From an uncultured Methanosarcinales archaeon (GTDB lineage: Archaea; Nanobdellota; Nanobdellia; Woesearchaeales; DATDXC01), in NCBI GenBank assembly GCA_964510025.1, contig CAZDZV010000014.1, forward strand, positions 1-34,635: DNA of 34,635 nucleotides. The letters run 5' to 3'. This document shows, one piece after another, positions 3,861 to 34,635 of this stretch; the stretch's first letter is position 1, and every line of letters begins with the position of its first letter. The notes beneath the pieces were generated by a model. The model did not search any database and was not told the origin of the DNA. It was given only the letters and a program-made list of their open reading frames with translations. The position numbers and the translations under genes are program-made.

Positions 3861-4054
3861 GAATCAAAAAAAACAATAAACTAATACTTGGCCTGCTTAT
3901 TTAAATATTTCACGCATACACCTGTCCAGTGTCCAGTGCAGTTAATAAATCCTGTTTCTCCAGAATTTCTTATAGATAGGTCCTATTACACTAGACATCA
4001 AATATCAGAACAAAACAGCAAGATTTAATAATATCAGGATACCCATAAGAAAAA

Positions 4055-6954: not shown

Positions 6955-6993
6955 ACCCTGTTGTTTATGCCAATATATATTTAAAGATTTTGA

Positions 6994-9176: not shown

Positions 9177-9177
9177 G

Positions 9178-10700: not shown

Positions 10701-10807
10701 ACTTCCCCCTATTTTAGACGTAGGTTCTTACTATAATAGAAATAATTGAAAAGCTACTATTTAAATAAAGGGGAAATTATAGTGGCAATTAAGACTAGAT
10801 AGTATTA

Positions 10808-11815: not shown

Positions 11816-11839
11816 GATACTACTATATAATAGTATAAT

Positions 11840-11858
11840 TAGTATATAAATCTTTCGA
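11840..11858 (-). promoter_or_regulatory. Archaeal BRE-TATA promoter for GH15
   Basis: CGAAAGATTTATATA on the minus strand, about 30 nt upstream of the ATG. Confidence 0.55.
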
Positions 11859-11992
11859 TTTTATAACTACCAAATGGTAATTAATTAACCAAAAAAGGCT
11901 TTATTGGTTTTGTGGATATTACGCTAACACTATTTTACACTATTTTTATAAAGCTATATCTGAAATGTTAGATAAAAAGGGGTGGTGATAGG

Positions 11993-13777: not shown

Positions 13778-13778
13778 A

Positions 13779-14735
13779 ATGGAACTCAGAAAAGACTATA
13801 TACTTGAAAGATGGGTCTATCTGGCTACAGACAGAAAGAAAAGGCCCAAAGAATTCAGGAAAGAGGAGCAAAAACAGGATTCAGCTGTTTGTTTTTTCTG
13901 TCCCGGCAATGAGCATCTTACTCCACCGGAGATAGGAAGGATAGAAGAAAACAGCAGATGGAAGATAAGGTGGTTTCCCAATAAGTTTCCTGCTGTGAAG
14001 CAGGAGGGCAATCCGAACATTTGGACAGACAACACTTTCTTTACCTATTCAGCAGGCTACGGAAAGCATGAGGTGATAGCTGAGACACCTGACCATGAGA
14101 AGCAGCTTTGGGACCTTCCCAAGGAGCATCTCAAGCAGGTTTTGGGGGTCTATAAGCAGCGTATTGATGACATCTCCAGGGAGCCTGGAGTTAGGTATGT
14201 GCTTGTGTTCAAGAACCATGGAAGGGAAGGCGGAACATCATTAGTCCACACGCATACGCAGGTCACAGGCATTAATCTTGTTCCCCCTCTTGTGAAGGAA
14301 GAAGTAGAGGCATCAGCACGTTTTGAGAATTGCCCGTATTGCAGCATAATCGAGACAGAAAGAAAAAGCCTTAGGAGGTGTTTTGAAAACCGGACATTCC
14401 TGGCTTTTTCACCTTATGCATCCCGATTTAATTTTGAGATATGGATTTTTCCTAAAAGGCATGTTACAACTATGGCTGAGCTGAATGAAAATGAGCTCGA
14501 TGATTTAGCTGACATGATGCGCAGTATCCTCACCAAGCTAAAGGAGCTCAACGCTCCCTACAACTTTTTCCTGCACTATGCTCCTCAGGGAAAAGACCTC
14601 CATATGCACATTGAGGTTACCCCGAGGTTCGCAACGTGGGCTGGCTTTGAGCTGGCATCCGACGCAATAATAAATTCTGTTAGCCCTGAAGATGCTGCGA
14701 GATTTTACCGGGGAGAAGATGACATTTCTGAATAA
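13779..14735 (+). CDS. galT: GalT-like sugar-1-phosphate nucleotidyltransferase
   Basis: ELRKD, RKKRP, CFFCPGNE, NKFPA, HEVIAE, FKNHG..GGTSLVHTHTQ (HxHxQ) and AGFEL. Confidence 0.88.
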   Translation: MELRKDYILERWVYLATDRKKRPKEFRKEEQKQDSAVCFFCPGNEHLTPPEIGRIEENSRWKIRWFPNKFPAVKQEGNPNIWTDNTFFTYSAGYGKHEVIAETPDHEKQLWDLPKEHLKQVLGVYKQRIDDISREPGVRYVLVFKNHGREGGTSLVHTHTQVTGINLVPPLVKEEVEASARFENCPYCSIIETERKSLRRCFENRTFLAFSPYASRFNFEIWIFPKRHVTTMAELNENELDDLADMMRSILTKLKELNAPYNFFLHYAPQGKDLHMHIEVTPRFATWAGFELASDAIINSVSPEDAARFYRGEDDISE

Positions 14736-19195: not shown

Positions 19196-20247
19196 TGATG
19201 AATTGGCCATATCTTATTAACAGCCTTCCTCAGCTGGCGATTGCTATTATGTCTGCCATGGTGCTTTGGCGCCTGCTGAAGAATGAGGGTAATGAAACAT
19301 CATATCCTCTGGTTTTTATTGGCATCTTGTATTTCATTTCTGCGCTGCTTAATCTTGCATGGTTCACAGGCATTTTAGCTCCGGAATTTGTTGCCATAAA
19401 TTCTGCTTTAAGTGTGCTTCTTGCGATGCTTTTTATTTATCTTGGCTACCGGATAACAGAGAACAAAAACTGGCTCTCTATCCTTATTGTGCTGTTCATC
19501 ATATTGAACGCTGCATATTTTGTATTCCAAAATCCTCTGCTTGTTAATCTTATAGCACTATGCTCTATTCTAATCCTTTTTCTTGATCTTGAGATATTCT
19601 ACAACGGCACTGTCAAGGAGATAGGCGTTCTGGGCATAATCTTTTCCTTATTGTCCCTGCTGATTTTGCTTCTTTACGTGCTAGGTATAAATCTGCCCCT
19701 CTCAGCGCTTCCTGACTTTGCCATAGTCCTGCTGTTCCTAAAATTTAGGAGATATGAAAGCAAGACAATAAGATTCAAGAAGATATCTTCTATCCGCCTT
19801 CCTTTAAGGGTATTGAAATTCTCAGTTTTTATAACCATTCTCTCTGTTTTTTTGATGTTCGGTACATTGGCCCTGCATGAGATAGGCCATGCGCTTCCTG
19901 CCAGGTTCTATGGTTGCAGCTACAAGTCTGTCATCTATCAGTCCGGGCATCTGCCCCATACAGAGATAGAATGCCCTGCTGAAGCTAACAGGACAGTCAT
20001 GTTGTTGGGAGCTATAACTTTGACCAGCTTAATTGCGCTGCTTTTTTTTATGACTGGGGATAGGTTCATAGCAGCTGTATCCTTCCTGATCTTTGCTTTT
20101 GGGATTATAATAGCAAATAACGACTTCATTGCCCTTGATATATCCCACAGCCTGCTCTTCCTCCTGGACGCCTTTGCAGCTATAGTCATCATTACAGGAA
20201 TATCAAGGATAATCATGATATACTCTGGAAGATCAGCTGGACACTAG
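19192..20247 (+). CDS. Multi-pass membrane protein with C-terminal M50-like zinc metallopeptidase domain
   Basis: About 11 TM segments, LHEIGH (HExxH) at the end of a helix and a downstream NNDF. Confidence 0.6.
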   Translation: MMMNWPYLINSLPQLAIAIMSAMVLWRLLKNEGNETSYPLVFIGILYFISALLNLAWFTGILAPEFVAINSALSVLLAMLFIYLGYRITENKNWLSILIVLFIILNAAYFVFQNPLLVNLIALCSILILFLDLEIFYNGTVKEIGVLGIIFSLLSLLILLLYVLGINLPLSALPDFAIVLLFLKFRRYESKTIRFKKISSIRLPLRVLKFSVFITILSVFLMFGTLALHEIGHALPARFYGCSYKSVIYQSGHLPHTEIECPAEANRTVMLLGAITLTSLIALLFFMTGDRFIAAVSFLIFAFGIIIANNDFIALDISHSLLFLLDAFAAIVIITGISRIIMIYSGRSAGH

Positions 20248-21213
20248 GGCATCAATTCTTTCCATGATGCCTTTGCTTTTAATGGATAATAGCTGCTTGC
20301 TCTCTTCTATGGCATTTTGTATGGCATCCATATCATGTATAGACCTGAGATAAAGATGGTTATACTCCTTTACAAAAGCGTAGAAATAGCTGTCCAGCAC
20401 CTGATAATAAAAATCCATAAGGCTTTTGCTAAATCGGTCATGCAGCTTCATCAGTATCTCTATCAACTTTACGGTGCCCTTTTCCCCTAAGCCTGTTATG
20501 TATGGCTCATATGGGTCTCGTTTCTGGGCATCCATCTCCTTGAAGTACTCGATAAAAGGCAAAGATCTCATCCTGATGGGATTATAAAAAGAGATTATCT
20601 GCTTCTCGGATAATGCGTTGGTTATCTTATCGAGCAGTTCCTCAAATGACTTTCTGTGTTTTTCGAGATCTACGAGCTTATCCTGGAGAAGCTTCGCCTC
20701 CACTTTGGGAGCATAAAGCTTAAGCCTGGCTATTGACAGTTTTTTTTGGAAGCTTCTATCCTTCCTGTCCATAAGCGCTGCAAACATCACATTGGAGCTG
20801 TTCCTGGTCTTATTGCAGTACCTGCTAACGTGGGTGCTGATTGTTGCCTTTGTCTTTGCGATCCTTTCTTTATACTTCTGAATGGCTTTCTGGAGTCCGC
20901 TAGGCTCTTTCTCCTCTTTTTCACCTTCTTCAGCAGTTTCTTCACCCTCTCCGCTTTTTTCCGGTTCCTCAGCTTTTTTTTTCTTCTTTTTCTGGAGCGC
21001 TTCCTGCCGCTGCTTTTCTTCATCAATCTTCTTTCGGGCAATTAGTATCTGATTAAGATAAACGCTTATCCTGTCTATCAGGACCATGACATCATTCATG
21101 CAAAGCATAATATCTTCAAGGCTTTTCTTGGAGTTTGTCTTTAGCTTTCTCTTGTCTTCTAGCAAAGAATGGATATATTCCTCTCTCAGATGCTCTGGCT
21201 TAATTTCTGGCAT
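20233..21213 (-). CDS. Hypothetical helical, highly charged cytoplasmic protein
   Basis: 326-aa ORF with a K/E low-complexity insert. Last gene of the minus-strand operon. Confidence 0.75.
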   Translation of the reverse strand: MPEIKPEHLREEYIHSLLEDKRKLKTNSKKSLEDIMLCMNDVMVLIDRISVYLNQILIARKKIDEEKQRQEALQKKKKKKAEEPEKSGEGEETAEEGEKEEKEPSGLQKAIQKYKERIAKTKATISTHVSRYCNKTRNSSNVMFAALMDRKDRSFQKKLSIARLKLYAPKVEAKLLQDKLVDLEKHRKSFEELLDKITNALSEKQIISFYNPIRMRSLPFIEYFKEMDAQKRDPYEPYITGLGEKGTVKLIEILMKLHDRFSKSLMDFYYQVLDSYFYAFVKEYNHLYLRSIHDMDAIQNAIEESKQLLSIKSKGIMERIDALVSS

Positions 21214-21215
21214 TG

Positions 21216-21872
21216 CTAGTATATCACCCCCACCAATACTCCGTTAATTTGGTTGAACCTAACTTTCGATAGGCTATATAGCTTTTCGTTGTCGCCTTTC
21301 AGGAGCGCATACCACCCATCCTCATCTGAGCCGGTTTTGATGACTCTGTGTATGATTATATCATCTCCTTTTCTGTAGGATACGATGTCCCCTGCCTGCA
21401 CATCATCACTATCAGCTGGACGCATCTCAATGCCGTTGGCGCCCTGGTCGATCACTGGATCCATGGAATCTGTATCAGCAAAGCTCGACACAAAAAGTCC
21501 GGATTTTTGGATGATCAGCTTATCTCTGTACAGAAATATCTGCTCCCTCCCTATAAGGTCCTGCGGTGAAGGGACATCTCTGGGCAGAATATCCAGCATA
21601 TCGGTCTTTTCCTTCTGAGATGCTTCAGCAATATGCCTAATCAGCAGATCCATATCCTCCCTTAATTTCTCGTTCTCTTCGTATAGGAATGAATACTTAT
21701 CTTCCAGTAGCTTGCTCTCCTCTGCCAGCTGCCTGTTGTTGGCTCTTGTCTCGTTAAGCTCTGCTTCAGCTTGGCTGAGCTGCCCCTGCAGCACAAATAC
21801 ATAAAAAAAGCTGGCAAGGAATATCGCTATCAGAATGATTCCGTTGATGAATATCAGCTTTCTTTCCATCAT
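21216..21872 (-). CDS. S26 (Sec11/SipW-type) signal peptidase domain on a coiled-coil stalk
   Basis: TM helix, coiled coil, then TDSMDP (Ser), GDIVSY, IIHRV (His) and KGDN. Confidence 0.8.
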   Translation of the reverse strand: MMERKLIFINGIILIAIFLASFFYVFVLQGQLSQAEAELNETRANNRQLAEESKLLEDKYSFLYEENEKLREDMDLLIRHIAEASQKEKTDMLDILPRDVPSPQDLIGREQIFLYRDKLIIQKSGLFVSSFADTDSMDPVIDQGANGIEMRPADSDDVQAGDIVSYRKGDDIIIHRVIKTGSDEDGWYALLKGDNEKLYSLSKVRFNQINGVLVGVIY

Positions 21873-22369
21873 CCCTTCTCAAGATTTTTTTTGAGCTCGT
21901 CGATTTTAGACTTTGCCTGGCTGCATCTGGCCATTATCTCTTCCCTTCTGGAAGGGATTGCGTCTTTCGCCATTTCGGTTATATCTATATATATCTGCCT
22001 TGCTACGCCTTCGTTTCTCATCTTTATATGATACTCCATCTCATCAAAAAGTCTGTCTATTGATCTTGTTACGTCCGCTGCATCCCTTTTTATCTCTCTT
22101 TTGGCTTCCTCCATCCCGAGACTAAAATCTGGCTCTGGCCCTGCCTTATTTGAGAGAACTATCACCATTATCCCGGCTGTAACAGAGACCAGCACGACAG
22201 CAGCGATCATGATCTTCTCGTCCCAAGCCAGCATAAAGCCCAGTGGATAAAGGATGAAACTATATATAAGATAGCCTGCCACGCCTATCAGTACGAGGCG
22301 GAATATTATCTTTGCCTTATCTTTCTTTTTGTTGTCCTTTGGACGATAGTTTTCCTCATCTTCGCTCAT
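21869..22369 (-). CDS. Two-TM protein with C-terminal helical domain
   Basis: Two hydrophobic helices. ATGA overlaps with both neighbours. Confidence 0.75.
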   Translation of the reverse strand: MSEDEENYRPKDNKKKDKAKIIFRLVLIGVAGYLIYSFILYPLGFMLAWDEKIMIAAVVLVSVTAGIMVIVLSNKAGPEPDFSLGMEEAKREIKRDAADVTRSIDRLFDEMEYHIKMRNEGVARQIYIDITEMAKDAIPSRREEIMARCSQAKSKIDELKKNLEKG

Positions 22370-24738
22370 GACTTAACCTCCGATGCTGCTGCTGCGGGCT
22401 TTGCTCCTTCTGATTTTGCTTCTCCGGCTGCTTTGCCGCTCTTTGCATCTTCAACCTTTTTCTTGTATTCTTCTACCTTCTTGTTTACATCTTCCTTCTC
22501 CTTCTTAGGGAGAGTCACGCTCTGTATCTCGATTATCCTGTCGTTGACCGAGAAATAATCCTTGTTGCCTATAGCCTCGTCAATGTCCTTGAACAGCTTG
22601 TTTATCTGGTCCATGTTCTCCTTTATCTGGTCAGGCTCCATCTTGACTTCCGGCTCCTCTTTTTTAGGGGCAGCTTCTCCGCCGCCGGAAGCTGCCTCCT
22701 CCTTCTTGAGCTTCTCCTTTGCTTTCTTGGCTGCCTCAAGCTCTGCCTTCAGCTCATCCTCGCTTACCAACTTTATCTGCAGCTTCTTGGGCTTCTTGCC
22801 CACCTTGTCCCAGACCTTCTGTATCCTTGGGGTCAGCCCGTCTAGGTATATCTTGACCATGTTGAAGTTTCCGCTCTTTATCTTGTCCTTGGCCAGCTTA
22901 AGCTCCAGCTTGAGGTCAAAGACATCCTGCTTGAGCTCCTCAAGCTGTTCAAACTCGTATTCGAGCTGTTCCACGATTGCATTGTATTTGTTGTATTCAT
23001 CAAGCTCCTCGTCCTTCAGCCTTACAACTGAATGGAAGATCGGCCTGAATGTGACATAGAAAGGCTGGCCCCTGTTCCATGATGAGTTCTGGACCATGCC
23101 TGAGCCGACCGGAGCCTTTACCAGGGCCTGGATAAATTCCTCGCCGTACTGCATCTTGATCCTGTTCAGGTCACCCTCATCCCTTGTCTTCATCTGCACC
23201 AGGGTGTTGATGTTCGCCTTGATCTCACCTACGAAATCTGAGAGGACCTGGGAGATAAGCAAGATTCCTATCCCCCACTTTCTGAACTCCCTGCAGCCCC
23301 TTTCTATCTGGGTGAACCCCTCTCCGGAGCCGCCGAACTTAGGCAGGATTCTGTGGATCTCATCGAATGCCACTATATACTTTAGGCCCCTGAACTCTTC
23401 AAGCTTTGAGTGGAATATCTGCCTTATCATGTTGGCGACGAAGGTATCATAGTTCTTTGGGTCCAGGGTGTTGGTTGTGAAGACCTGGATCTCTCCGGGC
23501 TTCATGTATTTGAAGATATCGACAATCTCCCTATGGTCTTTGATGGCCTTTATGTTTCCAGGGAATGCCCTGGCATCCTTTTTTGGGTTTAATCCGAATT
23601 TAGTGTAGAAGCTCAGGAAATTCTTGTCTGTAAGCTTCCTTAGCATGCCAGACCACTGGGCTGTTGGGTCAAATACGCATACAGCCACGCCCTTAATAAG
23701 GCATTCTTCCACAATGTCCTGGGCAGAGATGGACTTTCCGCCGCCTGTCGAGCCTGCCACAATGCTATGGACAGTCAGCCTGTCCATGTCCAAAAAGCAT
23801 TTCTTCTTTGTTTCTGCAAAGTATCCGACAAAAAGGCTCCTCTCTCCTTCCTGGGGCATCTCTTTGTAGTCTACCGTTGCATGGAATCTTTTCTTTTTCT
23901 CTTTTTGCTTTTTTATGAAAAGAAACATGAAATATGAGACTGTGCAGAAAGAAAAAACAGTCACGATTGCCCATACAGGCATGATGCCACCCACTTTTTT
24001 AGCATACAACGGCCTTTCTACCATAAAAAGGCCCTTTACAACAGCTGTATAGCCTGAATAATGTGCCTCAACAGTCAATGCATAATCGCCCATGTCGAAG
24101 CTGTTAGGCACCTCAAATTCCCTAAGCAAAGAATGCGAATTTACCATAGAAATGGTCTCAGACGCTGACCAGTTGTTGCCGTCGCTAGTTTCATTATCTT
24201 CTTCCAGCTTGTTTATTTTATGGATGAGCGTTATATTGAACTCATTATCTGCCATCAGGTTATACAAGTCAATCTTGTAGTTAAGCTTTCTTCCGTTTGG
24301 CACAAGGTCCTGAAGAAGCTTAAGCTCTATCATCAGGGTTCCCACTGGGGAGTCTTCCAGGCTCTCTATCATGATGCTTATCGGGATGAGCTCGTTTATT
24401 CCCTCAGTTACAGCAAGTGATCCATTGAAACTCCTTGGCTCATCCTTCCCATAGACTATCAACTCTATTGCCCTCTCTGAATTTCCGGGTATCACCACTA
24501 TGCTCTCGCTAAGCTCGATGAGCTCTGCCACATCACCCATGATATCAAGATATATCTCAAGATCATTGCTCTTAAGATTGGTGAACGTAATCTCCCGCTT
24601 CATTATGTCCCCTGGCTGTATCTTTTCATTTACTTCGGCTGCTGAGATCTTGTAGCTCTCCTTGGCTATCTCAGCATAGCAGATGGATGTTAAGAGCAGC
24701 AACGCCATGGCCAGCTTCGCTAGTCTGCCGGGCATCAT
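22366..24738 (-). CDS. Surface protein-ATPase fusion B: signal peptide, Ig-like ectodomain, TM, HerA/DUF87/TrwB-like ATPase, coiled-coil tail
   Basis: Walker A GSTGGGKS, VFDP, Walker B AFDEIH and REFRKWGIGILLISQ (Arg finger and Gln sensor). Confidence 0.85.
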   Translation of the reverse strand: MMPGRLAKLAMALLLLTSICYAEIAKESYKISAAEVNEKIQPGDIMKREITFTNLKSNDLEIYLDIMGDVAELIELSESIVVIPGNSERAIELIVYGKDEPRSFNGSLAVTEGINELIPISIMIESLEDSPVGTLMIELKLLQDLVPNGRKLNYKIDLYNLMADNEFNITLIHKINKLEEDNETSDGNNWSASETISMVNSHSLLREFEVPNSFDMGDYALTVEAHYSGYTAVVKGLFMVERPLYAKKVGGIMPVWAIVTVFSFCTVSYFMFLFIKKQKEKKKRFHATVDYKEMPQEGERSLFVGYFAETKKKCFLDMDRLTVHSIVAGSTGGGKSISAQDIVEECLIKGVAVCVFDPTAQWSGMLRKLTDKNFLSFYTKFGLNPKKDARAFPGNIKAIKDHREIVDIFKYMKPGEIQVFTTNTLDPKNYDTFVANMIRQIFHSKLEEFRGLKYIVAFDEIHRILPKFGGSGEGFTQIERGCREFRKWGIGILLISQVLSDFVGEIKANINTLVQMKTRDEGDLNRIKMQYGEEFIQALVKAPVGSGMVQNSSWNRGQPFYVTFRPIFHSVVRLKDEELDEYNKYNAIVEQLEYEFEQLEELKQDVFDLKLELKLAKDKIKSGNFNMVKIYLDGLTPRIQKVWDKVGKKPKKLQIKLVSEDELKAELEAAKKAKEKLKKEEAASGGGEAAPKKEEPEVKMEPDQIKENMDQINKLFKDIDEAIGNKDYFSVNDRIIEIQSVTLPKKEKEDVNKKVEEYKKKVEDAKSGKAAGEAKSEGAKPAAAASEVKS
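22369..23916. repeat. 1548-bp direct repeat, copy 1
   Basis: Matches 24741-26288 (offset 2372). Shadow ORFs in other frames also translate identically. Confidence 0.93.
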
Positions 24739-27700
24739 TTTGACTTAACCTCCGATGCTGCTGCTGCGGGCTTTGCTCCTTCTGATTTTGCTTCTCCGGC
24801 TGCTTTGCCGCTCTTTGCATCTTCAACCTTTTTCTTGTATTCTTCTACCTTCTTGTTTACATCTTCCTTCTCCTTCTTAGGGAGAGTCACGCTCTGTATC
24901 TCGATTATCCTGTCGTTGACCGAGAAATAATCCTTGTTGCCTATAGCCTCGTCAATGTCCTTGAACAGCTTGTTTATCTGGTCCATGTTCTCCTTTATCT
25001 GGTCAGGCTCCATCTTGACTTCCGGCTCCTCTTTTTTAGGGGCAGCTTCTCCGCCGCCGGAAGCTGCCTCCTCCTTCTTGAGCTTCTCCTTTGCTTTCTT
25101 GGCTGCCTCAAGCTCTGCCTTCAGCTCATCCTCGCTTACCAACTTTATCTGCAGCTTCTTGGGCTTCTTGCCCACCTTGTCCCAGACCTTCTGTATCCTT
25201 GGGGTCAGCCCGTCTAGGTATATCTTGACCATGTTGAAGTTTCCGCTCTTTATCTTGTCCTTGGCCAGCTTAAGCTCCAGCTTGAGGTCAAAGACATCCT
25301 GCTTGAGCTCCTCAAGCTGTTCAAACTCGTATTCGAGCTGTTCCACGATTGCATTGTATTTGTTGTATTCATCAAGCTCCTCGTCCTTCAGCCTTACAAC
25401 TGAATGGAAGATCGGCCTGAATGTGACATAGAAAGGCTGGCCCCTGTTCCATGATGAGTTCTGGACCATGCCTGAGCCGACCGGAGCCTTTACCAGGGCC
25501 TGGATAAATTCCTCGCCGTACTGCATCTTGATCCTGTTCAGGTCACCCTCATCCCTTGTCTTCATCTGCACCAGGGTGTTGATGTTCGCCTTGATCTCAC
25601 CTACGAAATCTGAGAGGACCTGGGAGATAAGCAAGATTCCTATCCCCCACTTTCTGAACTCCCTGCAGCCCCTTTCTATCTGGGTGAACCCCTCTCCGGA
25701 GCCGCCGAACTTAGGCAGGATTCTGTGGATCTCATCGAATGCCACTATATACTTTAGGCCCCTGAACTCTTCAAGCTTTGAGTGGAATATCTGCCTTATC
25801 ATGTTGGCGACGAAGGTATCATAGTTCTTTGGGTCCAGGGTGTTGGTTGTGAAGACCTGGATCTCTCCGGGCTTCATGTATTTGAAGATATCGACAATCT
25901 CCCTATGGTCTTTGATGGCCTTTATGTTTCCAGGGAATGCCCTGGCATCCTTTTTTGGGTTTAATCCGAATTTAGTGTAGAAGCTCAGGAAATTCTTGTC
26001 TGTAAGCTTCCTTAGCATGCCAGACCACTGGGCTGTTGGGTCAAATACGCATACAGCCACGCCCTTAATAAGGCATTCTTCCACAATGTCCTGGGCAGAG
26101 ATGGACTTTCCGCCGCCTGTCGAGCCTGCCACAATGCTATGGACAGTCAGCCTGTCCATGTCCAAAAAGCATTTCTTCTTTGTTTCTGCAAAGTATCCGA
26201 CAAAAAGGCTCCTCTCTCCTTCCTGGGGCATCTCTTTGTAGTCTACCGTTGCATGGAATCTTTTCTTTTTCTCTTTTTGCTTTTTTATTATGACCACTAT
26301 GAAGAATCCTGTAGAGAAGAGCCCGATTATGGTGGAAAGCAGCCAAACAGGAAATATGCCGAACAGGTTGTACTTGTAGAAAGGGTCCTTGATTACAAAC
26401 AAGGTGTGGGCGCTTGACTCGTAGCCTGAATATTCTGCATCCACAGACAATATATAGTCTCCGAGCTCTATATCTTTGGGTATCTGGGCGTTTCTTAGCA
26501 GCGAGATGAATGTTGGCACCACAGTGGTCTGCTCGCCCAAGTACAGTATCTTGCTCTTGTTCATGTCTGTGAGCGTGAAGTTAAGATGCACATCAAATTC
26601 AGTGTCAGTCAGCAGGTTTACTATGTCGGTCTTATATCTGAAATCATGGCCCCTAAAAGCTGATTTTTGCAATGTATCTATCTTTATTATCAGGGACTTG
26701 AGGGGGATCTTTCCCTCCTTTATGATCTGCAGCTCTATAGGTATGAATGCCTGCATATCCCCTTTTATCTTGAGCATGCCTGAATAGAATCCTGGATCGC
26801 CTGTGCCGAGCAGCCGTACAACAAGCTTTGCGCTTGCGTTTTTGGCGATGACAGCATCATCCATACTAAGGCTGACATAAGGTGTTACGCTTCCAGAAAC
26901 CTCAAATTCCAGGTAAGATGAGACCTGCTTGAAGTTGTAGATTGTCAGGGATTCCTCAACAAAAGACCCCATCCGTACTTTCTTCTTGATAGCATCTAAC
27001 GAAGTATATATGTCCATGCCTGTCGGCCTCTCCTCGACATCTGCCTGCTGGGGTGTCGGTCCGCTTCCTGGCCCTAGACCAGGCCCTAGACCAGGCCCTA
27101 GACCAGGCCCTTCTTCAGGAGGCCTGTAGCTCCCCATATCAATATTATGCTTGAGCCTTTCTCCGTCAGTTATGTTATAGGCTTCAACATATGTATTATA
27201 GCCTTCCATAACAGCTATCAGATAGTGGCTTCCAGCTGCCACAATCACCGAATAGCTTCCATTTGCATCTGACGTGGTTATTTCCCCGTGGGTGTAGATA
27301 GATACGTTAGCCAGGACAGCATCTCCGCTTGTTATGTTTCCATATATGATGGCGCTGCGTACCCCTAATACGAAAAAGGAGAAGGGCTGCTTCAGCGGGA
27401 TAAAACTGATAGTATCATTTTCGATGTCCAGGTCGCTTATGTTCAGCTCTATCCATGCGTCGTCTGTTGAATTATAGTAGTAGGCAGTGAGATAGGACTC
27501 ATTGAACTGACCTGCAATGTCAGATTCATTGTAGCTTATCGTATATGTTGCGTTTTGAAGCGCTGATATGTTTATATTTGTGGAGAACTCATAGTATTTT
27601 CCCAGGTTTAGGAATCCTGGCAAAGCAACAGAGGAAGGCTTTGCAGTATAGAGCGCTCCTGTCAGCTTGCTGTCATTCTGGCTTATGTTCAGCAGGACAT

Positions 27701-29306
27701 CGACTGTTGTTGACACGCATTCACTGATATTAAACGTCTCCACGATATCTGCTGTAATATTTCTGGTTATGGTGACAGAACAGCTAGCCTCCGCTACTGA
27801 TGTCATGGTTATGTTATGCTCAGTTGTCTGGTTTGCTATCAAAGTAACATTGTTCAGGTACCTTTCATAGCCGTTTCTGGTTGCAACGATGAAATAGTTG
27901 CCTATAGGTGCTGTTATGTTATAGCTTCCGTTTTCATTTGAAGTGGCATTGTATGTTGTTCCGCCCAGATATACGGTAGCATTCACGATCGGGCTGTTGC
28001 CTGTATCCAGCACATAGCCATTTACGATGCTCTCTTCACCCTGAAGGTTGCTTATGAGGCTCAGGTTAATGTCATATGTGATCCATGCGAGCAAGGGCAC
28101 TGTTATCCTATCTACATGGGGCTCATACAGTGACTTAAAAGCTGTTATTGTCTTGTTTCCTTCGAACGCAACCAAGCTGTATGTTCCGTTCTCATCGGTA
28201 TATGTATGATTATCGCCCACAGAAACAGTGGCATTCTCAATAGGAAGCCCTGTGTCAGCATCTCTTACAGTTCCGTTAACGAAACCTATGCCGCTCGGTT
28301 CACCCAGACCGTAATTTGGTATCATGGTAAAATTATACTGCAGCGGATTGTCCAGGTCAAGGGTTATCTGGTCGGTATATGTCAGATAGCCTGTCATCCT
28401 TGCTTCAAAATGATGGTCTCCTTCTCTCGCTATCATGCTGTAATAACCTGTCGCAGAAGAGTTTGCCTGCCAGTTCGTGCCGACTGTGATATTGACCCCT
28501 TCGATAGGCAATCCTGTTATGTTGTCAAATACATAACCGTCAAGCACAACCTGCTGTATGTTTGAGCAGTTGCCGAAAGGATCTGAGATTGGATCACCAT
28601 ACGCATAATACCTAATGTAGGATCTGTTTACAGGCACTGGCAGCATGATCTGATAATTGTATAGGTCCCCATCATACCCTATGGCAAGTGTATTAACATG
28701 GGTCCCGAATAAAAAAACATCATTATTGTCCTTTATTACGAATAAGTCAAAATCCGTTCCATTATCCTTTCCAAGCTGCTTGGTGTGCGTGCCAATTGTA
28801 GTGATGTTCACCCCGCCCAGATTAACAGTGATATTTCCAGTGAATGTATTTGTCGGAGAATCTTCTTCGAGCGGATCGCTTCCTACGAAATTCTCAAGCT
28901 CTTCGACTGTGACTGCTGAGTACGGAAACGAGAGATTAGTATACCATGTCTCTGAAAAATAGATATCATTGCCTGTCTGCCCAAAACAGTCAAATTCAAG
29001 GTCACTGTTGTTTACTTCTGTCACGCTTAGGTTAAACCAAAAAGGATCCAGTTCCTCGTTAAGCTCCAGGGAGAATAATCCTGCTACACCTGCCCAGTAG
29101 GAGGTCGTTTCCCTGGGCCGGATTATTATCTGGGTGATGGTCCCTGCTGTTGCGTTCAGCTGATATCCCAGATATCCGATAAAATCTTTAGCAAAGAACA
29201 AGCCAAGGATAGACCCCATCAATATCAGGAGCACAAATACGCTGAACAGTATTTTATTATCCAGCAATCTCTTCCTCTTTCGATATATTCTCTTGTATCT
29301 AACCAT
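24735..29306 (-). CDS. Surface protein-ATPase fusion A (1523 aa)
   Basis: N-terminal TM, subunit-like domain, four carboxypeptidase-regulatory-like repeats (e.g. VNGTVRDADTGLPIENATVSV), many NxS/T sequons, a (GPGL)n linker, Ig-like domains, a TM and the same ATPase as fusion B. Confidence 0.85.
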   Translation of the reverse strand: MVRYKRIYRKRKRLLDNKILFSVFVLLILMGSILGLFFAKDFIGYLGYQLNATAGTITQIIIRPRETTSYWAGVAGLFSLELNEELDPFWFNLSVTEVNNSDLEFDCFGQTGNDIYFSETWYTNLSFPYSAVTVEELENFVGSDPLEEDSPTNTFTGNITVNLGGVNITTIGTHTKQLGKDNGTDFDLFVIKDNNDVFLFGTHVNTLAIGYDGDLYNYQIMLPVPVNRSYIRYYAYGDPISDPFGNCSNIQQVVLDGYVFDNITGLPIEGVNITVGTNWQANSSATGYYSMIAREGDHHFEARMTGYLTYTDQITLDLDNPLQYNFTMIPNYGLGEPSGIGFVNGTVRDADTGLPIENATVSVGDNHTYTDENGTYSLVAFEGNKTITAFKSLYEPHVDRITVPLLAWITYDINLSLISNLQGEESIVNGYVLDTGNSPIVNATVYLGGTTYNATSNENGSYNITAPIGNYFIVATRNGYERYLNNVTLIANQTTEHNITMTSVAEASCSVTITRNITADIVETFNISECVSTTVDVLLNISQNDSKLTGALYTAKPSSVALPGFLNLGKYYEFSTNINISALQNATYTISYNESDIAGQFNESYLTAYYYNSTDDAWIELNISDLDIENDTISFIPLKQPFSFFVLGVRSAIIYGNITSGDAVLANVSIYTHGEITTSDANGSYSVIVAAGSHYLIAVMEGYNTYVEAYNITDGERLKHNIDMGSYRPPEEGPGLGPGLGPGLGPGSGPTPQQADVEERPTGMDIYTSLDAIKKKVRMGSFVEESLTIYNFKQVSSYLEFEVSGSVTPYVSLSMDDAVIAKNASAKLVVRLLGTGDPGFYSGMLKIKGDMQAFIPIELQIIKEGKIPLKSLIIKIDTLQKSAFRGHDFRYKTDIVNLLTDTEFDVHLNFTLTDMNKSKILYLGEQTTVVPTFISLLRNAQIPKDIELGDYILSVDAEYSGYESSAHTLFVIKDPFYKYNLFGIFPVWLLSTIIGLFSTGFFIVVIIKKQKEKKKRFHATVDYKEMPQEGERSLFVGYFAETKKKCFLDMDRLTVHSIVAGSTGGGKSISAQDIVEECLIKGVAVCVFDPTAQWSGMLRKLTDKNFLSFYTKFGLNPKKDARAFPGNIKAIKDHREIVDIFKYMKPGEIQVFTTNTLDPKNYDTFVANMIRQIFHSKLEEFRGLKYIVAFDEIHRILPKFGGSGEGFTQIERGCREFRKWGIGILLISQVLSDFVGEIKANINTLVQMKTRDEGDLNRIKMQYGEEFIQALVKAPVGSGMVQNSSWNRGQPFYVTFRPIFHSVVRLKDEELDEYNKYNAIVEQLEYEFEQLEELKQDVFDLKLELKLAKDKIKSGNFNMVKIYLDGLTPRIQKVWDKVGKKPKKLQIKLVSEDELKAELEAAKKAKEKLKKEEAASGGGEAAPKKEEPEVKMEPDQIKENMDQINKLFKDIDEAIGNKDYFSVNDRIIEIQSVTLPKKEKEDVNKKVEEYKKKVEDAKSGKAAGEAKSEGAKPAAAASEVKSK
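24741..26288. repeat. 1548-bp direct repeat, copy 2
   Basis: Matches 22369-23916. Confidence 0.93.
27070..27110. repeat. 12-bp tandem repeat (GGCCCTAGACCA) x3 plus a partial unit
   Basis: Read directly. Encodes the GPGL linker on the minus strand. Confidence 0.95.
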
Positions 29307-29814
29307 TTTGTTTTTTCAATGCCCTATGATAGACAGTCCAGATGGTGCTGTCATCCCTCTTAAGCAGAAGGGCAATCTCATGAAAATTCAGATTGTAATT
29401 TTCTTTGAGGTACATGACAATAGCTTCAAGCGTAGAGAAGGTGCGGTTTTTTAGTAGTGAAGCAGGTATCTTGAACCTTGTTTTTGTTAGCGTAAAGGGC
29501 TTGGGTAGTTTTTTAACGGCATTCCTATATGTGGCCCATATTGTCCTGATGTTACGATTTAGCAGGTCTGCTATCTGCCTGTTCGTGAGATGATGCTCTT
29601 CAAAAAGATATTTTACAATTGCCTCAAGAGAGCTCAGCCTATCGCTAAAAATCGAGACAGGTATGGTTGCTCCAGGTTTGCCGATCAGTCTGTTGATGTC
29701 ACTATTGCTGAAATTATGCTCTTCTTTAAGGTGATTTATTAATATGTCTAAGATTTGAGAATTGTCAAGATCCATGATATTATTTTCTCTGGCCACCTTC
29801 AATTCTTTCCTCAT
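29299..29814 (-). CDS. Regulator with two tandem HTH repeats (sigma70 region 4/LuxR-like)
   Basis: Internal duplication: IPVSIF..RLSSLEAIVKYL...IADLLNRNIRTIW and IPASLL..RTFSTLEAIVMYL...IALLLKRDDSTIW. Confidence 0.8.
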   Translation of the reverse strand: MRKELKVARENNIMDLDNSQILDILINHLKEEHNFSNSDINRLIGKPGATIPVSIFSDRLSSLEAIVKYLFEEHHLTNRQIADLLNRNIRTIWATYRNAVKKLPKPFTLTKTRFKIPASLLKNRTFSTLEAIVMYLKENYNLNFHEIALLLKRDDSTIWTVYHRALKKQNG

Positions 29815-30394
29815 ATGTAAGTAAATTGTTAGTATTATGTAAAGAACTTGTATATAAATGTTTTTATTTTTTTATACTAATATACTTATTTGTATACTTA
29901 ATAAATCCTAATTTATTATTATGTAAATATTTAAACAATTATTTACCCATTATGTAAGTATTAAATTATTATTATGTAAATAGACTTACAAGATAATAAA
30001 TAAATTTAGATATTATTAGTATTACTAATATTTTTAATAAGATGAATATTATTAAAATTATTAATATTTTTAATATTATCAGTATTATTATAATGTATAA
30101 TCAGGGTATAACAAGCACACAACCCAAATAGTATTTATAGTACTAATAATAATATTATTATTAATAATATAAATATTATAAATATTCTTTATATTATTAG
30201 TATTATCTAGGTTTGTCATAAGCTGAAAAGCAAGACCACATAGCCAATAGTAATACTAATAGTATAAATAATACAAATATTATAGATACTATGGATATTG
30301 TAAATATTATAAATAGTTTAAATATTATAAGTAGTACTAGTAATATAATAAACACACTAATCGAGATTTTAGAAAGCTTTAAATAGTATTACAG
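29815..30394. promoter_or_regulatory. Very AT-rich divergent intergenic region with repeated TATGTAA and TACTAAT motifs
   Basis: No ORF. Minus-strand TATA near 29851-29858 (TTTATATA) and plus-strand GAAAGCTTTAAATA at 30372-30385. Confidence 0.65.
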
Positions 30395-30409
30395 TTGATA
30401 TTTTACAAA

Positions 30410-30589
30410 ATGCCAACACATTGTAGGATATGCGGAAATAGCTTTAAGGAAAGTCCGGACTCAGTGGTATTATGTGCCCATAAGAAAGGCGTGGTGCATC
30501 TTGGCTGTTGCATCGACAACTGCGCATGGGACAAGAAGCCATGCGAGCACTGCCATGGTGTCTATGACAAGCTTAATGTATCAGAATAG
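30410..30589 (+). CDS. Small Cys/His-rich zinc-finger protein (RING/PHD-like spacing)
   Basis: CxxC-x13-CxH-x5-HxxC-x11-CxxC. TATA box about 25 nt upstream of the ATG, so probably leaderless. Confidence 0.7.
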   Translation: MPTHCRICGNSFKESPDSVVLCAHKKGVVHLGCCIDNCAWDKKPCEHCHGVYDKLNVSE

Positions 30590-31045
30590 TCATTTCTTCT
30601 CTTCTTTCTTATCTTCCTTTGTGGCTTCGCTATCATCCTTCTTAGGTTTCTTCCTGCTTAGCTTATAGATACCATAAAAATAAAGCACAAGAGCTAAGAT
30701 GGCCGCTGCTATGATGTCAGATAAGATAAATAAAGGTGTATAGAAAAGCCTATACCTCCACAAGGCCAGATTCTGTTTCATAGAAAGCTCTTTCTCAGGT
30801 TCGCAGTCAGTCCACCAGCCTGAGCTAGGAACACCTGTCTGGTTCATAGTCACATTATCCCAATCCATAGTCTCATTGAGAACGATATTAGGGCAGCTGA
30901 TGTTTTTTTCGCTGAAATAAAGCACAGGTCCTGCTATGATTACCTTTCTAAGCAAAAAAAGATTTATAACAATGACAATTATGAGATATTTGCGAAAATT
31001 CTGCTTCAGATTATCTCGAAGGTCAAAATATTGCTTCCAGTTCAC
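30590..31045 (-). CDS. Hypothetical membrane protein with a small extracellular Cys loop
   Basis: 2-3 TM segments and a basic/acidic tail. Begins 1 nt after the transporter stop. Confidence 0.7.
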   Translation of the reverse strand: MNWKQYFDLRDNLKQNFRKYLIIVIVINLFLLRKVIIAGPVLYFSEKNISCPNIVLNETMDWDNVTMNQTGVPSSGWWTDCEPEKELSMKQNLALWRYRLFYTPLFILSDIIAAAILALVLYFYGIYKLSRKKPKKDDSEATKEDKKEEKK

Positions 31046-31046
31046 C

Positions 31047-33191
31047 TTAGTTCACCTTGAAATCGATCTGTTCATCTGCAGAGACAATCAGGCTTATCTT
31101 CAGGTCATCAGTATATGCCTTGATCCTATTCAGCTTCACTTGTTTTTCCCTAAGCCCTGGCAGCCCCATTATGACAAGATCAGATTCTCCTGAATTTTCA
31201 GATATGATCCGCCTCATGCTTCTGCGCTTATCCAGTATCACCCTCACGTCTATATTCTCGATCCTTGACTGTTTTACAACATGTTCAAGTCTGGATTTCT
31301 CCTTATCCATCTCTCCTTTCTTTCTTACAACATTCAGCAGCCTTATCACGGCATTTTTCCATTGGTCTGAATTGGTTATAAGGTAAGCGAGGAGCATCAT
31401 GAGGTTTCCGTTCGCTGGGGTGCTCCACCATACGTCCACTTTCTTGAAATCGCTGAAGCCTAGGTTATTTCTAAGTATTATGATGTTCTTGTTGATAGTG
31501 GCAGCATCTTCGAGCAGCCTTGAAAGCTTGAATCTCTCGTCCAGGTCGATAAATATGGTATTGAACGATATATCTCCAAGTTTCTCGCTCTGAAGGATGG
31601 TCCTAATGCTGGTTGAGAAATCATCGCTGATTATAACCTCTGGATAAAGGTCGATTCCTGAATCCTGAACAAATTCCTTCATCTGCTTCTCCAGCTTCTC
31701 ACCCCTCTTTTTCTGCCGGTTAATTTTCCCAGATACCAAAAAATACAGCTTTGTGATGCTGGCTTTTGCGTTTATCCAGTCAAGAATGTTGAAGATTACG
31801 TTCTTGTTGTCCTTATTGGCAGAAAAAGCCACTATGGTTGGCCTCCAGCTCTTCCTCGACCTGCCTGTATAACCTATCTTGCTGAGGGCCTTCTTCAGGA
31901 TCTGAAACCTCACGCCATCCCATACGCTCTCGCTTTTAGCGCTGCCTTTGGTCTTGAGGAGAACATAGAAAAGCAAAACCTGCGCACCTATACCTACTAG
32001 CATGACTGTTGGGTTGAATAGGTACATGACAGTATAGCACGCCAACATACCATACAGGTGTATTATCGGAAAACTTGAAAAAGACGGCCTGAAGCTGGGA
32101 TTTTTTGACACCTTTTCAAAAAACGCAGCGCCGTTTATCCAGCCATACACATTCAGGAACAGGATAGCAACCACCTGTGCCACAGTCTCAAGCTGCCCCA
32201 AGAAAATGATGCCGGTTGCTATTGAAAGGCTCAATAGCAAGGCTGCTCTTGGTTCATTGCTCTCGCCTATGCTTTTGCCCAGGAACGACAGCTTATTGGA
32301 AAACAGCTTATCTTGGACCATCGCCCTCAATGATCTCGGAGCTGTCATAAAACAGCTTAAGGCTGATGATGATGTTGCAAGCAGAACCCCCAGGATGACC
32401 AGCTGAGGAAATAAGGCTATGTCATGGATGATATATGGGTTGCTTACTAGGTCTGCAGCATTTGCTGCAAAGGATAATTTTGTCGCTAAAGCCAGGTACA
32501 CCATCATCGTGAAGATTATTGCAGAAAAAGTGCCTACGACAAGGCTTCTCCTTGGGTTCTTCAGGTCGCCGCTCATGCCTACACCTGCATCGATTCCTGT
32601 GACTGCAGGAAAAAACATCGCAAACCCCACCCAGAAAGGCAATATCAGAGGTGCACTTAGTGGGGCAACCGTAGGATTGGCTCCCAAAAATATAGAGGCC
32701 AATGAAAGGAGGATCATGGTAAATATGAAATATTGGATCTTGATGACAAAGCTTGCCCCCCTGAATACAAGGATGCCGAAGATTGCTATAGACACGAGCG
32801 CCAGGTTCATTTCTGACATAAAAACATTAAGCGCAGCTAAAATAGATGCGACAGCCCTGGCAAATGCCATGGCATAAAAACTTGAAGCTACTGTCTGTGC
32901 CAGAAACAGCTGTATGCCTATGCTCCCCCCTAATTCTCGGCCTAGACTCCGTGAGATAAGATAATAAAGGCCCCCTCCTTTCACATCTATATTGCTGGCG
33001 ATCGAAGATATCGAAAAAGCTGTTGCTATAGTTATGGAATGTGCGATCAGCACAACAAGTACTGTCCTGAAAAGCCCCAATCCCCCCACTACCTTAGGAG
33101 CAATATAGTACATGACAGCCCCGAAGATAGCCAGCGCAGAGGGAATGAACACTCCAGAAAAAGTTCCGAATCTCACTGGCTTAGCGCTCAC
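31047..33191 (-). CDS. Cation-chloride cotransporter (CCC/SLC12, APC superfamily)
   Basis: FGTFSGVFIP, GGGLYYLISRSLG.E.GGSIG, FFPAVTGI.AG..MSGDLKNP, SFRP, WRP and VDVWW in the C-terminal domain. Confidence 0.9.
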   Translation of the reverse strand: MSAKPVRFGTFSGVFIPSALAIFGAVMYYIAPKVVGGLGLFRTVLVVLIAHSITIATAFSISSIASNIDVKGGGLYYLISRSLGRELGGSIGIQLFLAQTVASSFYAMAFARAVASILAALNVFMSEMNLALVSIAIFGILVFRGASFVIKIQYFIFTMILLSLASIFLGANPTVAPLSAPLILPFWVGFAMFFPAVTGIDAGVGMSGDLKNPRRSLVVGTFSAIIFTMMVYLALATKLSFAANAADLVSNPYIIHDIALFPQLVILGVLLATSSSALSCFMTAPRSLRAMVQDKLFSNKLSFLGKSIGESNEPRAALLLSLSIATGIIFLGQLETVAQVVAILFLNVYGWINGAAFFEKVSKNPSFRPSFSSFPIIHLYGMLACYTVMYLFNPTVMLVGIGAQVLLFYVLLKTKGSAKSESVWDGVRFQILKKALSKIGYTGRSRKSWRPTIVAFSANKDNKNVIFNILDWINAKASITKLYFLVSGKINRQKKRGEKLEKQMKEFVQDSGIDLYPEVIISDDFSTSIRTILQSEKLGDISFNTIFIDLDERFKLSRLLEDAATINKNIIILRNNLGFSDFKKVDVWWSTPANGNLMMLLAYLITNSDQWKNAVIRLLNVVRKKGEMDKEKSRLEHVVKQSRIENIDVRVILDKRRSMRRIISENSGESDLVIMGLPGLREKQVKLNRIKAYTDDLKISLIVSADEQIDFKVN

Positions 33192-33220
33192 TTTAACAAC
33201 CTACATTTTTAGAAAAGCGA

Positions 33221-34078
33221 TTATACCAACTCTATGTAAAAGTAAAATGCAACTGGAGGTTGTGAGCCTGGCAAAGCTGACTGCGGCAGGATTATCTGGA
33301 AGTCGTATGTGTTGAAATCAAAGCCCCAGGACTCGTTCCTCATAAGTGAAGCATATACGATATCATAGTCTTTCTCTGCGCCGTCTCCTCCTTCTCCTGC
33401 TGCCTGGAACGTTCCGTCCGTGAGAACCACCTGGGTCCAGTTTCCGTCTGCATGCGGCGGGTCTGACTCTGTGTTGTTGTAGTTAAGGTAGGTTCCATAG
33501 CATTCACTTTCTGCTGGAGATGATATGGAATCATTGTCCTGGATAGGATTATCACCGACATAGAATCCTGGATTGCTGAATCCGGTGGTCGTAAAGGTAT
33601 TGTATAATGAGTCCTCATCAGAGGCAGTATGGTTGAAATTGGTATTCTCTTCTGATATCATGCTGCTGTTTGCGCAGCTTAGGTTTGCCCAGATTGGTAT
33701 GCCTCCTGCATAAGGATTTGTCAGCTCGTTTGGTCCTGCAGCATCATAGCCTTCTTTTGTTGCGTACAGCTCGCCGGTTGTTGTTACTAGCTCCCAATCA
33801 TATAGTGCGTAGCCGTTTGCGTCCTGCAATGCAAATTCACCATAGACATGCCCTACATAGCCCACCCACTTCATGGTTGGCTGGGATTCAGTAATATTCA
33901 GCTCATAGATATATCCTCTTGTCCCGTTTTGCTGGGTTCCGTTTGGATAATCATTGGTCATGTTCTGCACAACCTCTATTGCTGTGGGTGCAGAAGGGAA
34001 TACAGCAAATACAGCTGAAGCTGCCAGTATAGATATTAATATGAAGATGCAGATTTGGTCTAGGTTCTTATTTCTCAT
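33221..34078 (-). CDS. Secreted acidic glycoprotein (putative surface or filament subunit)
   Basis: Signal peptide ending AVFA, many NxS/T sequons, GYIYELN...WVGYVG and a C-terminal YDFQIILP...FYFYIELV. Confidence 0.8.
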   Translation of the reverse strand: MRNKNLDQICIFILISILAASAVFAVFPSAPTAIEVVQNMTNDYPNGTQQNGTRGYIYELNITESQPTMKWVGYVGHVYGEFALQDANGYALYDWELVTTTGELYATKEGYDAAGPNELTNPYAGGIPIWANLSCANSSMISEENTNFNHTASDEDSLYNTFTTTGFSNPGFYVGDNPIQDNDSISSPAESECYGTYLNYNNTESDPPHADGNWTQVVLTDGTFQAAGEGGDGAEKDYDIVYASLMRNESWGFDFNTYDFQIILPQSALPGSQPPVAFYFYIELV

Positions 34079-34220
34079 GTTTCAGCCCAAGCTTGATTAG
34101 CTTCTCGATATAATTAGAGACCTTCATCAGATTTTCTTCGCATATCTTATTTATCTTCTGGACTAATTCTTCGTCTAAAGTGATAGAAATTCTTACCTTT
34201 GTCCCTGAACCCTTCTTCAT
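34068..34220 (-). CDS. Ribbon-helix-helix (CopG/MetJ-like) regulator, 50 aa
   Basis: Not in the ORF track. MKKGSGTKVRISITLDEELVQKINKICEENLMKVSNYIEKLIKLGLKHEK. Overlaps the next start by 11 nt. Confidence 0.8.
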   Translation of the reverse strand: MKKGSGTKVRISITLDEELVQKINKICEENLMKVSNYIEKLIKLGLKHEK

Positions 34221-34480
34221 TTTGTAATACCCGTTATACTAATGATAATAATCTCATCTGTCATAATTTTCTTATAAATCTTAATTGTGTTACCTTTCCC
34301 ACTAATAAACTAAATGCCATTTATCTTACTAATCAGATAACAAATATATAAATCTTTTGCTTTTTTTGGTAATACGTATAGGATTTATCATACTAATGCT
34401 ACAAAAATGTATACTCATATATTTAATAGCTATAAAATATTATTAATAATATTAGTAATACTAATAATAAGAATAATATA

Positions 34481-34506
34481 AATAATAATAATAATAATAA
34501 TAATAA
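34481..34506. repeat. (AAT)8 microsatellite
   Basis: Read directly, in the AT-rich intergenic region. Confidence 0.9.
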
Positions 34507-34534
34507 AAGTATTATCAATAAAATATAGTAGACT

Positions 34535-34635
34535 CTATACCAGTTCTACATAGAAGTAAAATGCAACAGGTGGCTGCTCTCCTGGCAAAGCTGACTGCGG
34601 CAGGATTATCTGGAAGTCGTATGTGTTGAAATCAA
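34535..34635 (-). CDS. 3' end of a paralogue of the 285-aa secreted protein (partial)
   Basis: Translates as DFNTYDFQIILPQSALPGEQPPVAFYFYVELV*, against ...PGSQPPVAFYFYIELV* in 33221-34078. Confidence 0.88.
   Translation of the reverse strand, partial: DFNTYDFQIILPQSALPGEQPPVAFYFYVELV

Follow-up and report, generated by a model that had tools for sequence, protein, structure and literature searches.

SPEARE proteins, surface proteins known from host-dependent archaea, are the closest described relatives of the system reported here. Their topology was defined for Nanohaloarchaeota, with similar intracellular sequences in Woesearchaeota and a version of 655 amino acids (aa) among those listed (Hamm et al., 2019; PMC6642349), and their cytoplasmic part was re-annotated as a VirB4/TraG-like ATPase by Reva et al. 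(2023; PMC10266531), who proposed effector secretion and dispute the protease domain; for both papers we refer to the available text. How Woesearchaeota attach to and feed on their hosts is an open question, and cultured isolates are lacking according to the available text of PMC8421398. Here we analyzed a window of 34,635 nucleotides, which is the whole of contig CAZDZV010000014.1 (C14) of a 1.70-Mb, 97.7% complete woesearchaeal genome (G000, assembly GCA_964510025.1). The window encodes two membrane-spanning ATPase fusions, which on sequence grounds are SPEARE-type proteins of DPANN archaea, and a secreted protein, the subunit, that shares a domain with the larger fusion. We propose, with a probability of about 0.5, that these proteins make an adhesive fibre that assembles by itself and is anchored on a mixed ring of HerA type, which would translocate a macromolecule, DNA being the family default, at the site of contact.

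Both fusions, like the other features of the window unless stated otherwise, are encoded on the minus strand. The large fusion (1523 aa, 24735-29306), recognised from its open reading frame (ORF), Pfam matches, topology and profile homology, consists of a signal helix, an anchor domain, carboxypeptidase-regulatory-like repeats of immunoglobulin (Ig) type, a conserved pre-membrane stalk, one transmembrane (TM) helix, a HerA-type ATPase and a helical tail, in this order. In the short fusion (790 aa, 22366-24738), a signal peptide is followed by the pre-membrane stalk alone, one TM helix, and an ATPase and tail identical to those of the large fusion. A first-pass annotation of this DNA had described both as sequon-rich ectodomains joined by one TM helix to an ATPase; the signal helix, the single TM helix and the DUF87/HerA_C ATPase were confirmed in both proteins by Pfam matches over the cut-offs, but the abundance of sequons holds only for the large fusion, with 44 extracellular sequons as against 4 in the short one. 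The motifs that we take to be Walker A, Walker B, the strand-4 Gln and an arginine-finger-like element, with their presumed roles, are conserved across 17 aligned ATPase relatives, and the best PDB sequence matches of the fusion ATPases are HerA proteins (9c1m, 8wiv, 4d2i). The same annotation knew of no named system with this design; however, the ectodomain-TM-ATPase arrangement is the published SPEARE type, since it follows from the topology of Hamm et al. together with the ATPase re-annotation of Reva et al. The homology to SPEARE rests on a 4,079-aa protein of Ca. Nanosalina (P0246), with which the motor shares 47% identity over 371 residues (E 3e-113); AOV94740.1, NAR1_1133 and SVXNc_0300 were not among the six proteins looked up. 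The ATPase was matched in 52 of the 301 phylum genomes surveyed (E up to 1e-30), in open frames ranging from a few hundred to 9,416 aa. Among giant proteins (2,667-5,000 aa), 143 matched the ATPase and 120 were listed, which, where named, come from Woesearchaeota, Aenigmarchaeota, Micrarchaeota and Nanohaloarchaea. One contig (G003:C69, 22395-58691; L008-L010) carries an ORF of 12,098 aa that has one TM helix and the same ATPase at its end, and also holds fusions of 774 and 1,676 aa and four subunit genes.

The secreted subunit of the window (285 aa, 33221-34078), whose fold is not recognised, belongs to a family of secreted proteins of about 250 aa with cleavable-looking signal peptides and no membrane anchor. 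It is one of eight matching stretches in this genome, distributed over contigs C14, C6 and C3. The anchor domain of the large fusion (residues 44-245, 28572-29177) is homologous to it (hhalign 99.3%, E 2.6e-20) and is devoid of the distal Pro-containing arm of the subunits; profiles were needed for this link because pairwise BLAST between subunit and large fusion gave nothing significant. At least two secreted paralogues of this domain had been annotated upstream of the fusions, of which one is the homologous subunit just described and the second proved to be only a fragment, the C-terminal 32 codons of a further paralogue, recognised by sequence match and cut by the contig end (34535-34633). 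The subunit profile recovered 1,251 cluster representatives (E up to 0.001), and subunits are present in 82 of the 301 genomes, a tally that, like those for S26 and anchor proteins below, includes one unpublished genome (G246). Adhesin-like proteins with GLUG, CARDB or Ig domains carry a homologous domain as well, at their C-terminus. In the ESM Atlas the subunit matched only unnamed clusters of Woesearchaeota/Nanobdellota and the anchor domain had no usable named match; a Pfam scan of 150 subunits returned scattered matches only, and a PDB profile search a single match with E 0.61. Searches with the modelled fold gave no match in the PDB with Foldseek at E up to 0.001 (two models), none in BFVD, and best Z values of 3.1 and 2.6 for the two models among 48,161 chains with VIA-align, and these nulls establish neither a new nor a different fold.

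The monomer model of the subunit, built on a 150-sequence alignment, has a pLDDT of 90.8 and a pTM of 0.89, and its residues 1-45 are confidently placed with almost no paired strand. A complex model was made of the anchor-subunit pair, which passed in two of three runs (ipSAE 0.72; runs 0.72, 0.00 and 0.76), the best of three controls scoring 0.00; the mark applied is reached by 116 of 157 solved complexes and by 2 of 215 mismatched pairs, counts that are only roughly valid with the alignments used. The runs agree in at least 0% of contacts, and the partner pLDDT is at least 60. The best run places the first strand of the anchor in register beside the conserved Trp-Gly strand of the subunit; the interface includes the C-terminal strand, and the subunit's own arm is left free. 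Residues 45-69 of the large fusion (29100-29174), at the modelled interface (residues 8-32 of chain 2), are the predicted donor segment. Weak covariation agrees with the modelled register (pairs 31-47 and 31-50, z 3.6 and 3.1), and recall of a known complex by the model is unlikely because no solved look-alike was found. The anchor is thus predicted, from two of the three runs, to donate a beta-strand to the subunit.

The distribution of the donor strand falls into three classes. All 90 standalone subunits have the full N-terminal arm, the ATPase-fused N-terminal domains begin at the last (donor) strand of the arm in 62 of 76 cases, and the C-terminal domains of adhesin-like proteins are without the donor strand in 13 of 15; some long proteins matching the subunit profile keep the whole arm. 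Because of these donor and acceptor classes and the complex model, the simplest reading is a polar order running from the base through subunit after subunit to an acceptor-only tip, which suggests a donor-strand fibre with base, shaft and tip.

The occurrence of the components across the phylum points in the same direction. Subunits are present in 38 of the 52 genomes with the ATPase, and, by size classes of our own drawn from the ATPase open-frame lengths, in 37 of 42 genomes with compact or truncated fusions versus 1 of 10 with giants only. The subunit domain was found on none of the 120 listed giants, whereas the pre-membrane stalk is on 116 of them; the association of the subunits with compact fusions, more than with giant ones, would fit a polymer that takes the place of the giant stalk. 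Where the anchor-type domain occurs, it is a single match in 54 of 56 genomes.

The cytoplasmic halves of the two fusions form a direct repeat of 1,548 bp with 100% identity, copy 1 encoding residues 1007-1522 of the large fusion (24741-26288) and copy 2 lying in the short fusion (22369-23916), each beginning at the end of the TM helix and stopping just short of the following start codon. In two runs of one study, which may be the source of the assembly, the repeat is one 1,548-nt contig with no alternative letters listed, although contigs can hide a few variants, and its depth is 13.4 versus 5.2-7.0 in the flanks (run 1) and 11.4 versus 4.9-6.4 (run 2). Neither a deletion nor a circle joint linking the two copies was among what was listed, although contigs could not reveal one, and no RNA data set was listed as containing the stretch, which has no bearing on its expression. 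Motor repeats also occur in G028 (100% over 1,156 bp) and G049 (99.84% over 1,246 bp), with the gene order opposite to that of the window; in G000 and G028 the TM boundary is where the tract begins, in G049 it begins inside the TM helix, and in G218 a scaffold gap takes the place of the large fusion's motor. In a 28-row tree, the motors pair within genomes (G000, G028, G049, G277) and the pre-membrane stalks pair across genomes by type (supports 99/96, 96/99 and 99/89). Assemblies break 20-126 residues into the ATPase in ten genomes; G062 and G077 each have two different ectodomain genes whose final 55 bases are the same. From the trees and the assembly breaks we infer that recurrent gene conversion homogenises the motor halves, and, because conversion would keep the motors identical, long and short protomers may be mixed in one ring. 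As for the repeat taken by itself, it is highly improbable that it arose as an assembly artefact or through a recent neutral duplication that means nothing for function. The contigs drop rare variants and may themselves come from the assembly's own samples, and many motor paralogue pairs have diverged; such an origin is nevertheless hard to reconcile with the double depth next to unique flanks in two runs, with the grouping of the ectodomains, which are old paralogues, across genomes and of the motors within genomes, with tracts starting at or within the TM helix in three genomes, and with the same break point recurring in ten. Metagenome assemblies break at the ATPase because of the identical repeat, and genome surveys therefore under-count the system.

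Chaperone-usher pili are built by donor-strand complementation, and threads and cannulae are reportedly donor-strand fibres too. FtsK-HerA ATPases are ring pumps with DNA as the default substrate of the family. In the proposed model, the secreted subunits would lose their signal peptide and join up by themselves in the extracellular space, each filling a groove in its neighbour with its N-terminal strand. The large fusion would serve as the single base, its outermost domain donating the first strand and its Ig-type repeats holding that domain away from the membrane, and large adhesin-like proteins ending in an acceptor-only domain would close off the tip. In the cytoplasm, long and short fusions would form one ring with their HerA-type domains, the motor halves being kept identical by gene conversion, with one or a few fibre-bearing protomers among short ones. 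The motor would not build the fibre, which probably needs no ATP; it would most likely pump a macromolecule (DNA by family precedent, possibly protein) through the membrane at the place where the cell is held to a host or a surface by the fibre. The surface-fibre idea of the first-pass annotation survives in this form, in that homology, co-occurrence, donor-strand pattern and complex model favour a fibre of secreted paralogues on an ATPase fusion, while its ATP-driven assembly or pulling is unlikely because the same anchor domain is found on complete proteins without the ATPase. More tentatively, at somewhat under even odds, the system may represent a previously unrecognised donor-strand fibre of Woesearchaeales, made of a subunit with no matching fold, growing from the tip of a HerA-type translocase, capped by adhesins and replacing the one-piece giant SPEARE stalk, with a gene-converted mixed ring that moves DNA or protein between the archaeon and the cell in its grip.

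Several observations weigh against the proposed fibre and ring. The genomes surveyed are kin, so the co-occurrence statistics overstate the association and describe a pattern rather than a test, and other orders account for 4 of the 10 giant-only genomes. Subunits occur without an ATPase match in 44 genomes, and standalone subunits lie within the fetched flanks of only 10 of 78 ATPase loci. These loci were drawn from the best 80 of 572 confirmed stretches, some of them from the same genomes, by an alignment scan (a single-sequence scan found none), with flanks of up to 10 kb and often shorter. An anchor match without an ATPase match was obtained in 21 genomes, 16 of which were fetched; in seven of these the contig breaks just inside the ATPase, but in the other nine the anchor proteins are complete without it, several beside subunit genes. 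Where two motors were assembled, the copies share only 64-85% DNA identity in 10 of 13 genomes or loci, and one clade in the 28-row tree retains old separate motor paralogues; this sample is biased, since assembly tends to fail on identical copies. As for the modelling, one of the three complex runs scored 0.00 and the runs disagree, the anchor is a cousin of the subunit such that a passing model may reflect a subunit-subunit interface, and the model leaves unexplained how the anchor domain's own groove is filled. A shallow-alignment model puts part of the N-terminal arm in strands within the monomer, so that pairing in cis is possible, and in 14 of the 76 fused domains the profile aligned only further in and not to the strand region.

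Other arrangements of the same parts were considered. The ATPase ring could export protein effectors through a hollow conduit of polymerised subunits that replaces the giant one-piece stalk, as effector secretion has been proposed for SPEARE (PMC10266531, available text), the motor is close to that of the giant Nanosalina protein, and the subunits go with compact rather than giant fusions; we regard this as unlikely, given that the 97.7% complete genome has no VirB4 partner with PF03135, that tip-type proteins without a donor strand suggest a capped fibre, and that no tube protein stood out among the fold matches. A generic surface-lattice or adhesion module, with the fusion docked into an S-layer-like coat or a small oligomer and no fibre, would account for the many near-identical subunit copies, their heavy glycosylation potential and the 44 genomes with subunits and no motor. 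It seems a rather poor candidate, since the three-class donor/acceptor pattern, the one anchor per genome and the insertion of strands head to tail are what a linear, polar polymer would show. About equally doubtful is that ATP hydrolysis assembles, extends or retracts the fibre with the S26 peptidase as a dedicated maturase. Complete ATPase-less anchor proteins lie beside subunit genes, and the subunits have no membrane anchor for a cytoplasmic motor to act on, even though motor and anchor sit on one polypeptide. The peptidase half of this idea draws on the anchor's N-terminal helix, which in the model would need cleavage for strand donation, and on the co-encoded peptidases of the tafi and TasA systems (PMC11821415, PMC9245690, available text). 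However, the S26 subfamily of the window, annotated at first as dedicated to the system, is present in 205 of the 301 genomes and adjoins the ATPase at 3 of the 78 loci, and no subunit or ATPase gene was seen in 11 further short S26 loci.

The genes that do recur around the ATPase are others. A single-pass partner, X, is present in 68 of the 78 loci, a small helical protein in 61, a coiled-coil protein of about 350 aa in 54 and a ribbon-helix-helix (RHH) gene in 44; 56 have a long protein with a subunit-like domain, which in nearly all cases is the fusion, and a small DUF5752-like domain occurs, detected with a profile of our own, in fusion tails and neighbours in 74. In the genome studied here, X, the RHH gene and the helical protein are on contig C3 and the coiled-coil protein on C6, both contigs carrying them amid subunit genes. 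The records with the locus (L032-L109) are mostly titled Woesearchaeota, Nanoarchaeota, unclassified archaeon or 'uncultured Methanosarcinales', and one 'Saccharibacteria'; the last two kinds of title are probably mislabels, as the locus matches that of the Woesearchaeota records. The ATPase-less anchor proteins (L144, L146, L149, L150, L145, L147, L151-L153) in some cases have a C-terminal TM helix and in others are apparently only secreted, and they often adjoin a conserved membrane protein of about 555 aa.

In the window, the two fusions are part of a run of six ORFs whose coupling (overlaps of 8, 4, 4 and 4 nt, then a 2-nt gap) was confirmed throughout. It opens with a tandem helix-turn-helix (HTH) regulator (171 aa, 29299-29814) of a family usually found in subunit gene clusters, and the two fusions are followed by a 2-TM protein with a short helical tail (166 aa, 21869-22369), which is a lineage-restricted accessory, the S26-like peptidase with a coiled-coil stalk (218 aa, 21216-21872), probably a neighbour, and a charged helical protein (326 aa, 20233-21213), for which no link to the system was found. 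As a conserved unit, the six-gene operon did not stand, the 2-TM and 326-aa proteins having no profile match in any of the 78 ATPase loci and the peptidase in only three. The 2-TM protein was found in 2 of the 301 genomes, in one of which (G269) it follows a fusion-like tail. That the tandem HTH belongs with subunit clusters was upheld, as it is in 12 of 14 subunit loci examined; it is in 7 of the 78 ATPase loci, and in L045 and L156, too, the large fusion has it immediately upstream. A helical module common to the 2-TM protein, the fusion tails and partner X scored only weakly (E 1.2e-5 and 0.007-0.013 against 8 proteins) and is not relied on; it was not among the matches in 6,799 proteins. 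The S26 protein scored 23 bits against SipW, whose cut-off is 190 bits, and a second, more canonical S26 protein, separate from this subfamily, is on C6. Many Woesearchaeota proteins carry a short Gly-aromatic motif right after the N-terminal helix, and could be candidate substrates of the widespread S26 subfamily (L111-L121, 21216-21872).

The subunit gene is outside the operon, 3.4 kb upstream, with a 714-aa SLC12/K-Cl cotransporter-like protein (31047-33191) and other ORFs in between. One of these encodes a 151-aa membrane protein with two TM helices (30590-31045), a weak homologue of which (E 3.7e-5) is near the G269 subunit cluster; it gave a weak TrbE match (E 0.051) in a general NCBIfam scan that was not aimed at VirB2/3/6/8-like partners. 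Convergent with it on the plus strand is a small Cys/His-rich ORF of about 59 aa (30410-30589), zinc-finger-like by eye. Upstream of the subunit is a small ORF of 50 aa (34068-34220), labelled RHH-like by eye, which is duplicated alongside one of the subunit copies on C6. The subunit genes of C14 and C6 share 89-97% DNA identity (33221-34229 versus L123:162-1173 and 3131-3995), and C14 may be the continuation of C6, the two being separated by an assembly gap that these near-identical repeats brought about. Very AT-rich intergenic stretches with many short AT-rich repeats, possible regulator sites, lie upstream of the HTH gene (29815-30400) and of the subunit cassette (34240-34530). Elsewhere in the window is a glycogen/alpha-glucan cluster (5683-16464) with glycogen synthase, GalT-like, amylo-1,6-glucosidase, GH15, GH57 and GT4 genes, inside which are two DUF5752-like genes (6994-7981).

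The locus provides expressible parts for the question of how Woesearchaeota attach to hosts, namely the subunit family, base, tip and motor, such that fibre formation, seeding by the anchor and the motor substrate are testable in vitro without culturing, and it adds a candidate fibre to the known SPEARE surface proteins. New here are the family of fibre subunits, the donor-strand link predicted between it and the fusion, and the pair of homogenised motors. No description of the family, the anchor link or the motor repeat, nor of a donor-strand fibre joined to an FtsK-HerA motor, was found in our literature searches, the supplement of Hamm et al. being outside them; these proteins are not named in the available text of PMC11420986, PMC11291902, PMC9563170 and PMC11329633, and none of six terms looked for occurs in the preprint 10.64898/2026.05.13.725050.

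Among motor systems, type IV secretion (T4SS) was rejected, as PF03135 was found neither in the window nor in the rest of the genome. The window fusions have weak NCBIfam matches to CedD, TraC-F and TraD, but their scores are far under the cut-offs (26 versus 600 bits for CedD, 24 versus 567 bits for TraC), and they differ from VirB4/TraD of T4SS and from the Ced ATPases in carrying an ectodomain. Ced/Ted DNA import was rejected on that score and because the multi-pass partner is absent, the neighbours having one or two TM helices. Type IV pili and archaella were rejected likewise, as the fusions are without PF00437 and the three PF00437 matches of the genome are on other contigs. With HerA proteins, including HerA-NurA and anti-phage HerA, the fusions have in common DUF87 and HerA_C matches over the cut-offs; in contrast to them, the ATPase of the window is anchored in the membrane behind an ectodomain, and, unlike HerA-NurA, there is no nuclease partner among the Pfam matches of the window. 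Two other DUF87 proteins of the same genome score higher than the fusions.

SPEARE proteins, as described in the available text of PMC6642349 and PMC10266531, share with the fusions the signal peptide, the Ig-type ectodomain, one C-proximal TM helix, the cytoplasmic VirB4/TraG-like ATPase and the helical tail. The window fusions differ in being compact and without a laminin-G or serine-protease Pfam match, and, unlike the arrangement of Reva et al., there is no second VirB4 ATPase with PF03135 downstream. They further differ in the polymerisation-type domain at the tip of the large fusion, absent from all 120 listed giants, and in the pairing of paralogues with homogenised motors. The compact size, this tip and the motor pair are absent from the descriptions in those texts, although the supplement of Hamm et al. 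may list compact forms.

The proposed fibre resembles the donor-strand fibres TasA/TapA/SipW, AbpA (archaeal bundling pili; PMC9245690) and tafi (PMC11821415), in the available text, in having beta-rich subunits processed by a signal peptidase and predicted N-terminal strand donation. No TasA, AbpA or tafi-type match to the subunits was found by sequence or fold: the TasA-family PF12389 had no match in the genome and was not among 25 of 30 families shown for 150 aligned subunits, and the TasA/AbpA jelly-roll was not among the VIA-align matches listed (best Z 2.6, rmsd 4.6, 124 aligned). The word ATPase does not appear in the main texts on tafi and AbpA. In tafi, TafF and TafC are minor anchor and tip proteins that share the subunit domain, as proposed here, but the tafi anchor was modelled as a strand acceptor, whereas the anchor of the large fusion is predicted to be a donor (PMC11821415, available text).

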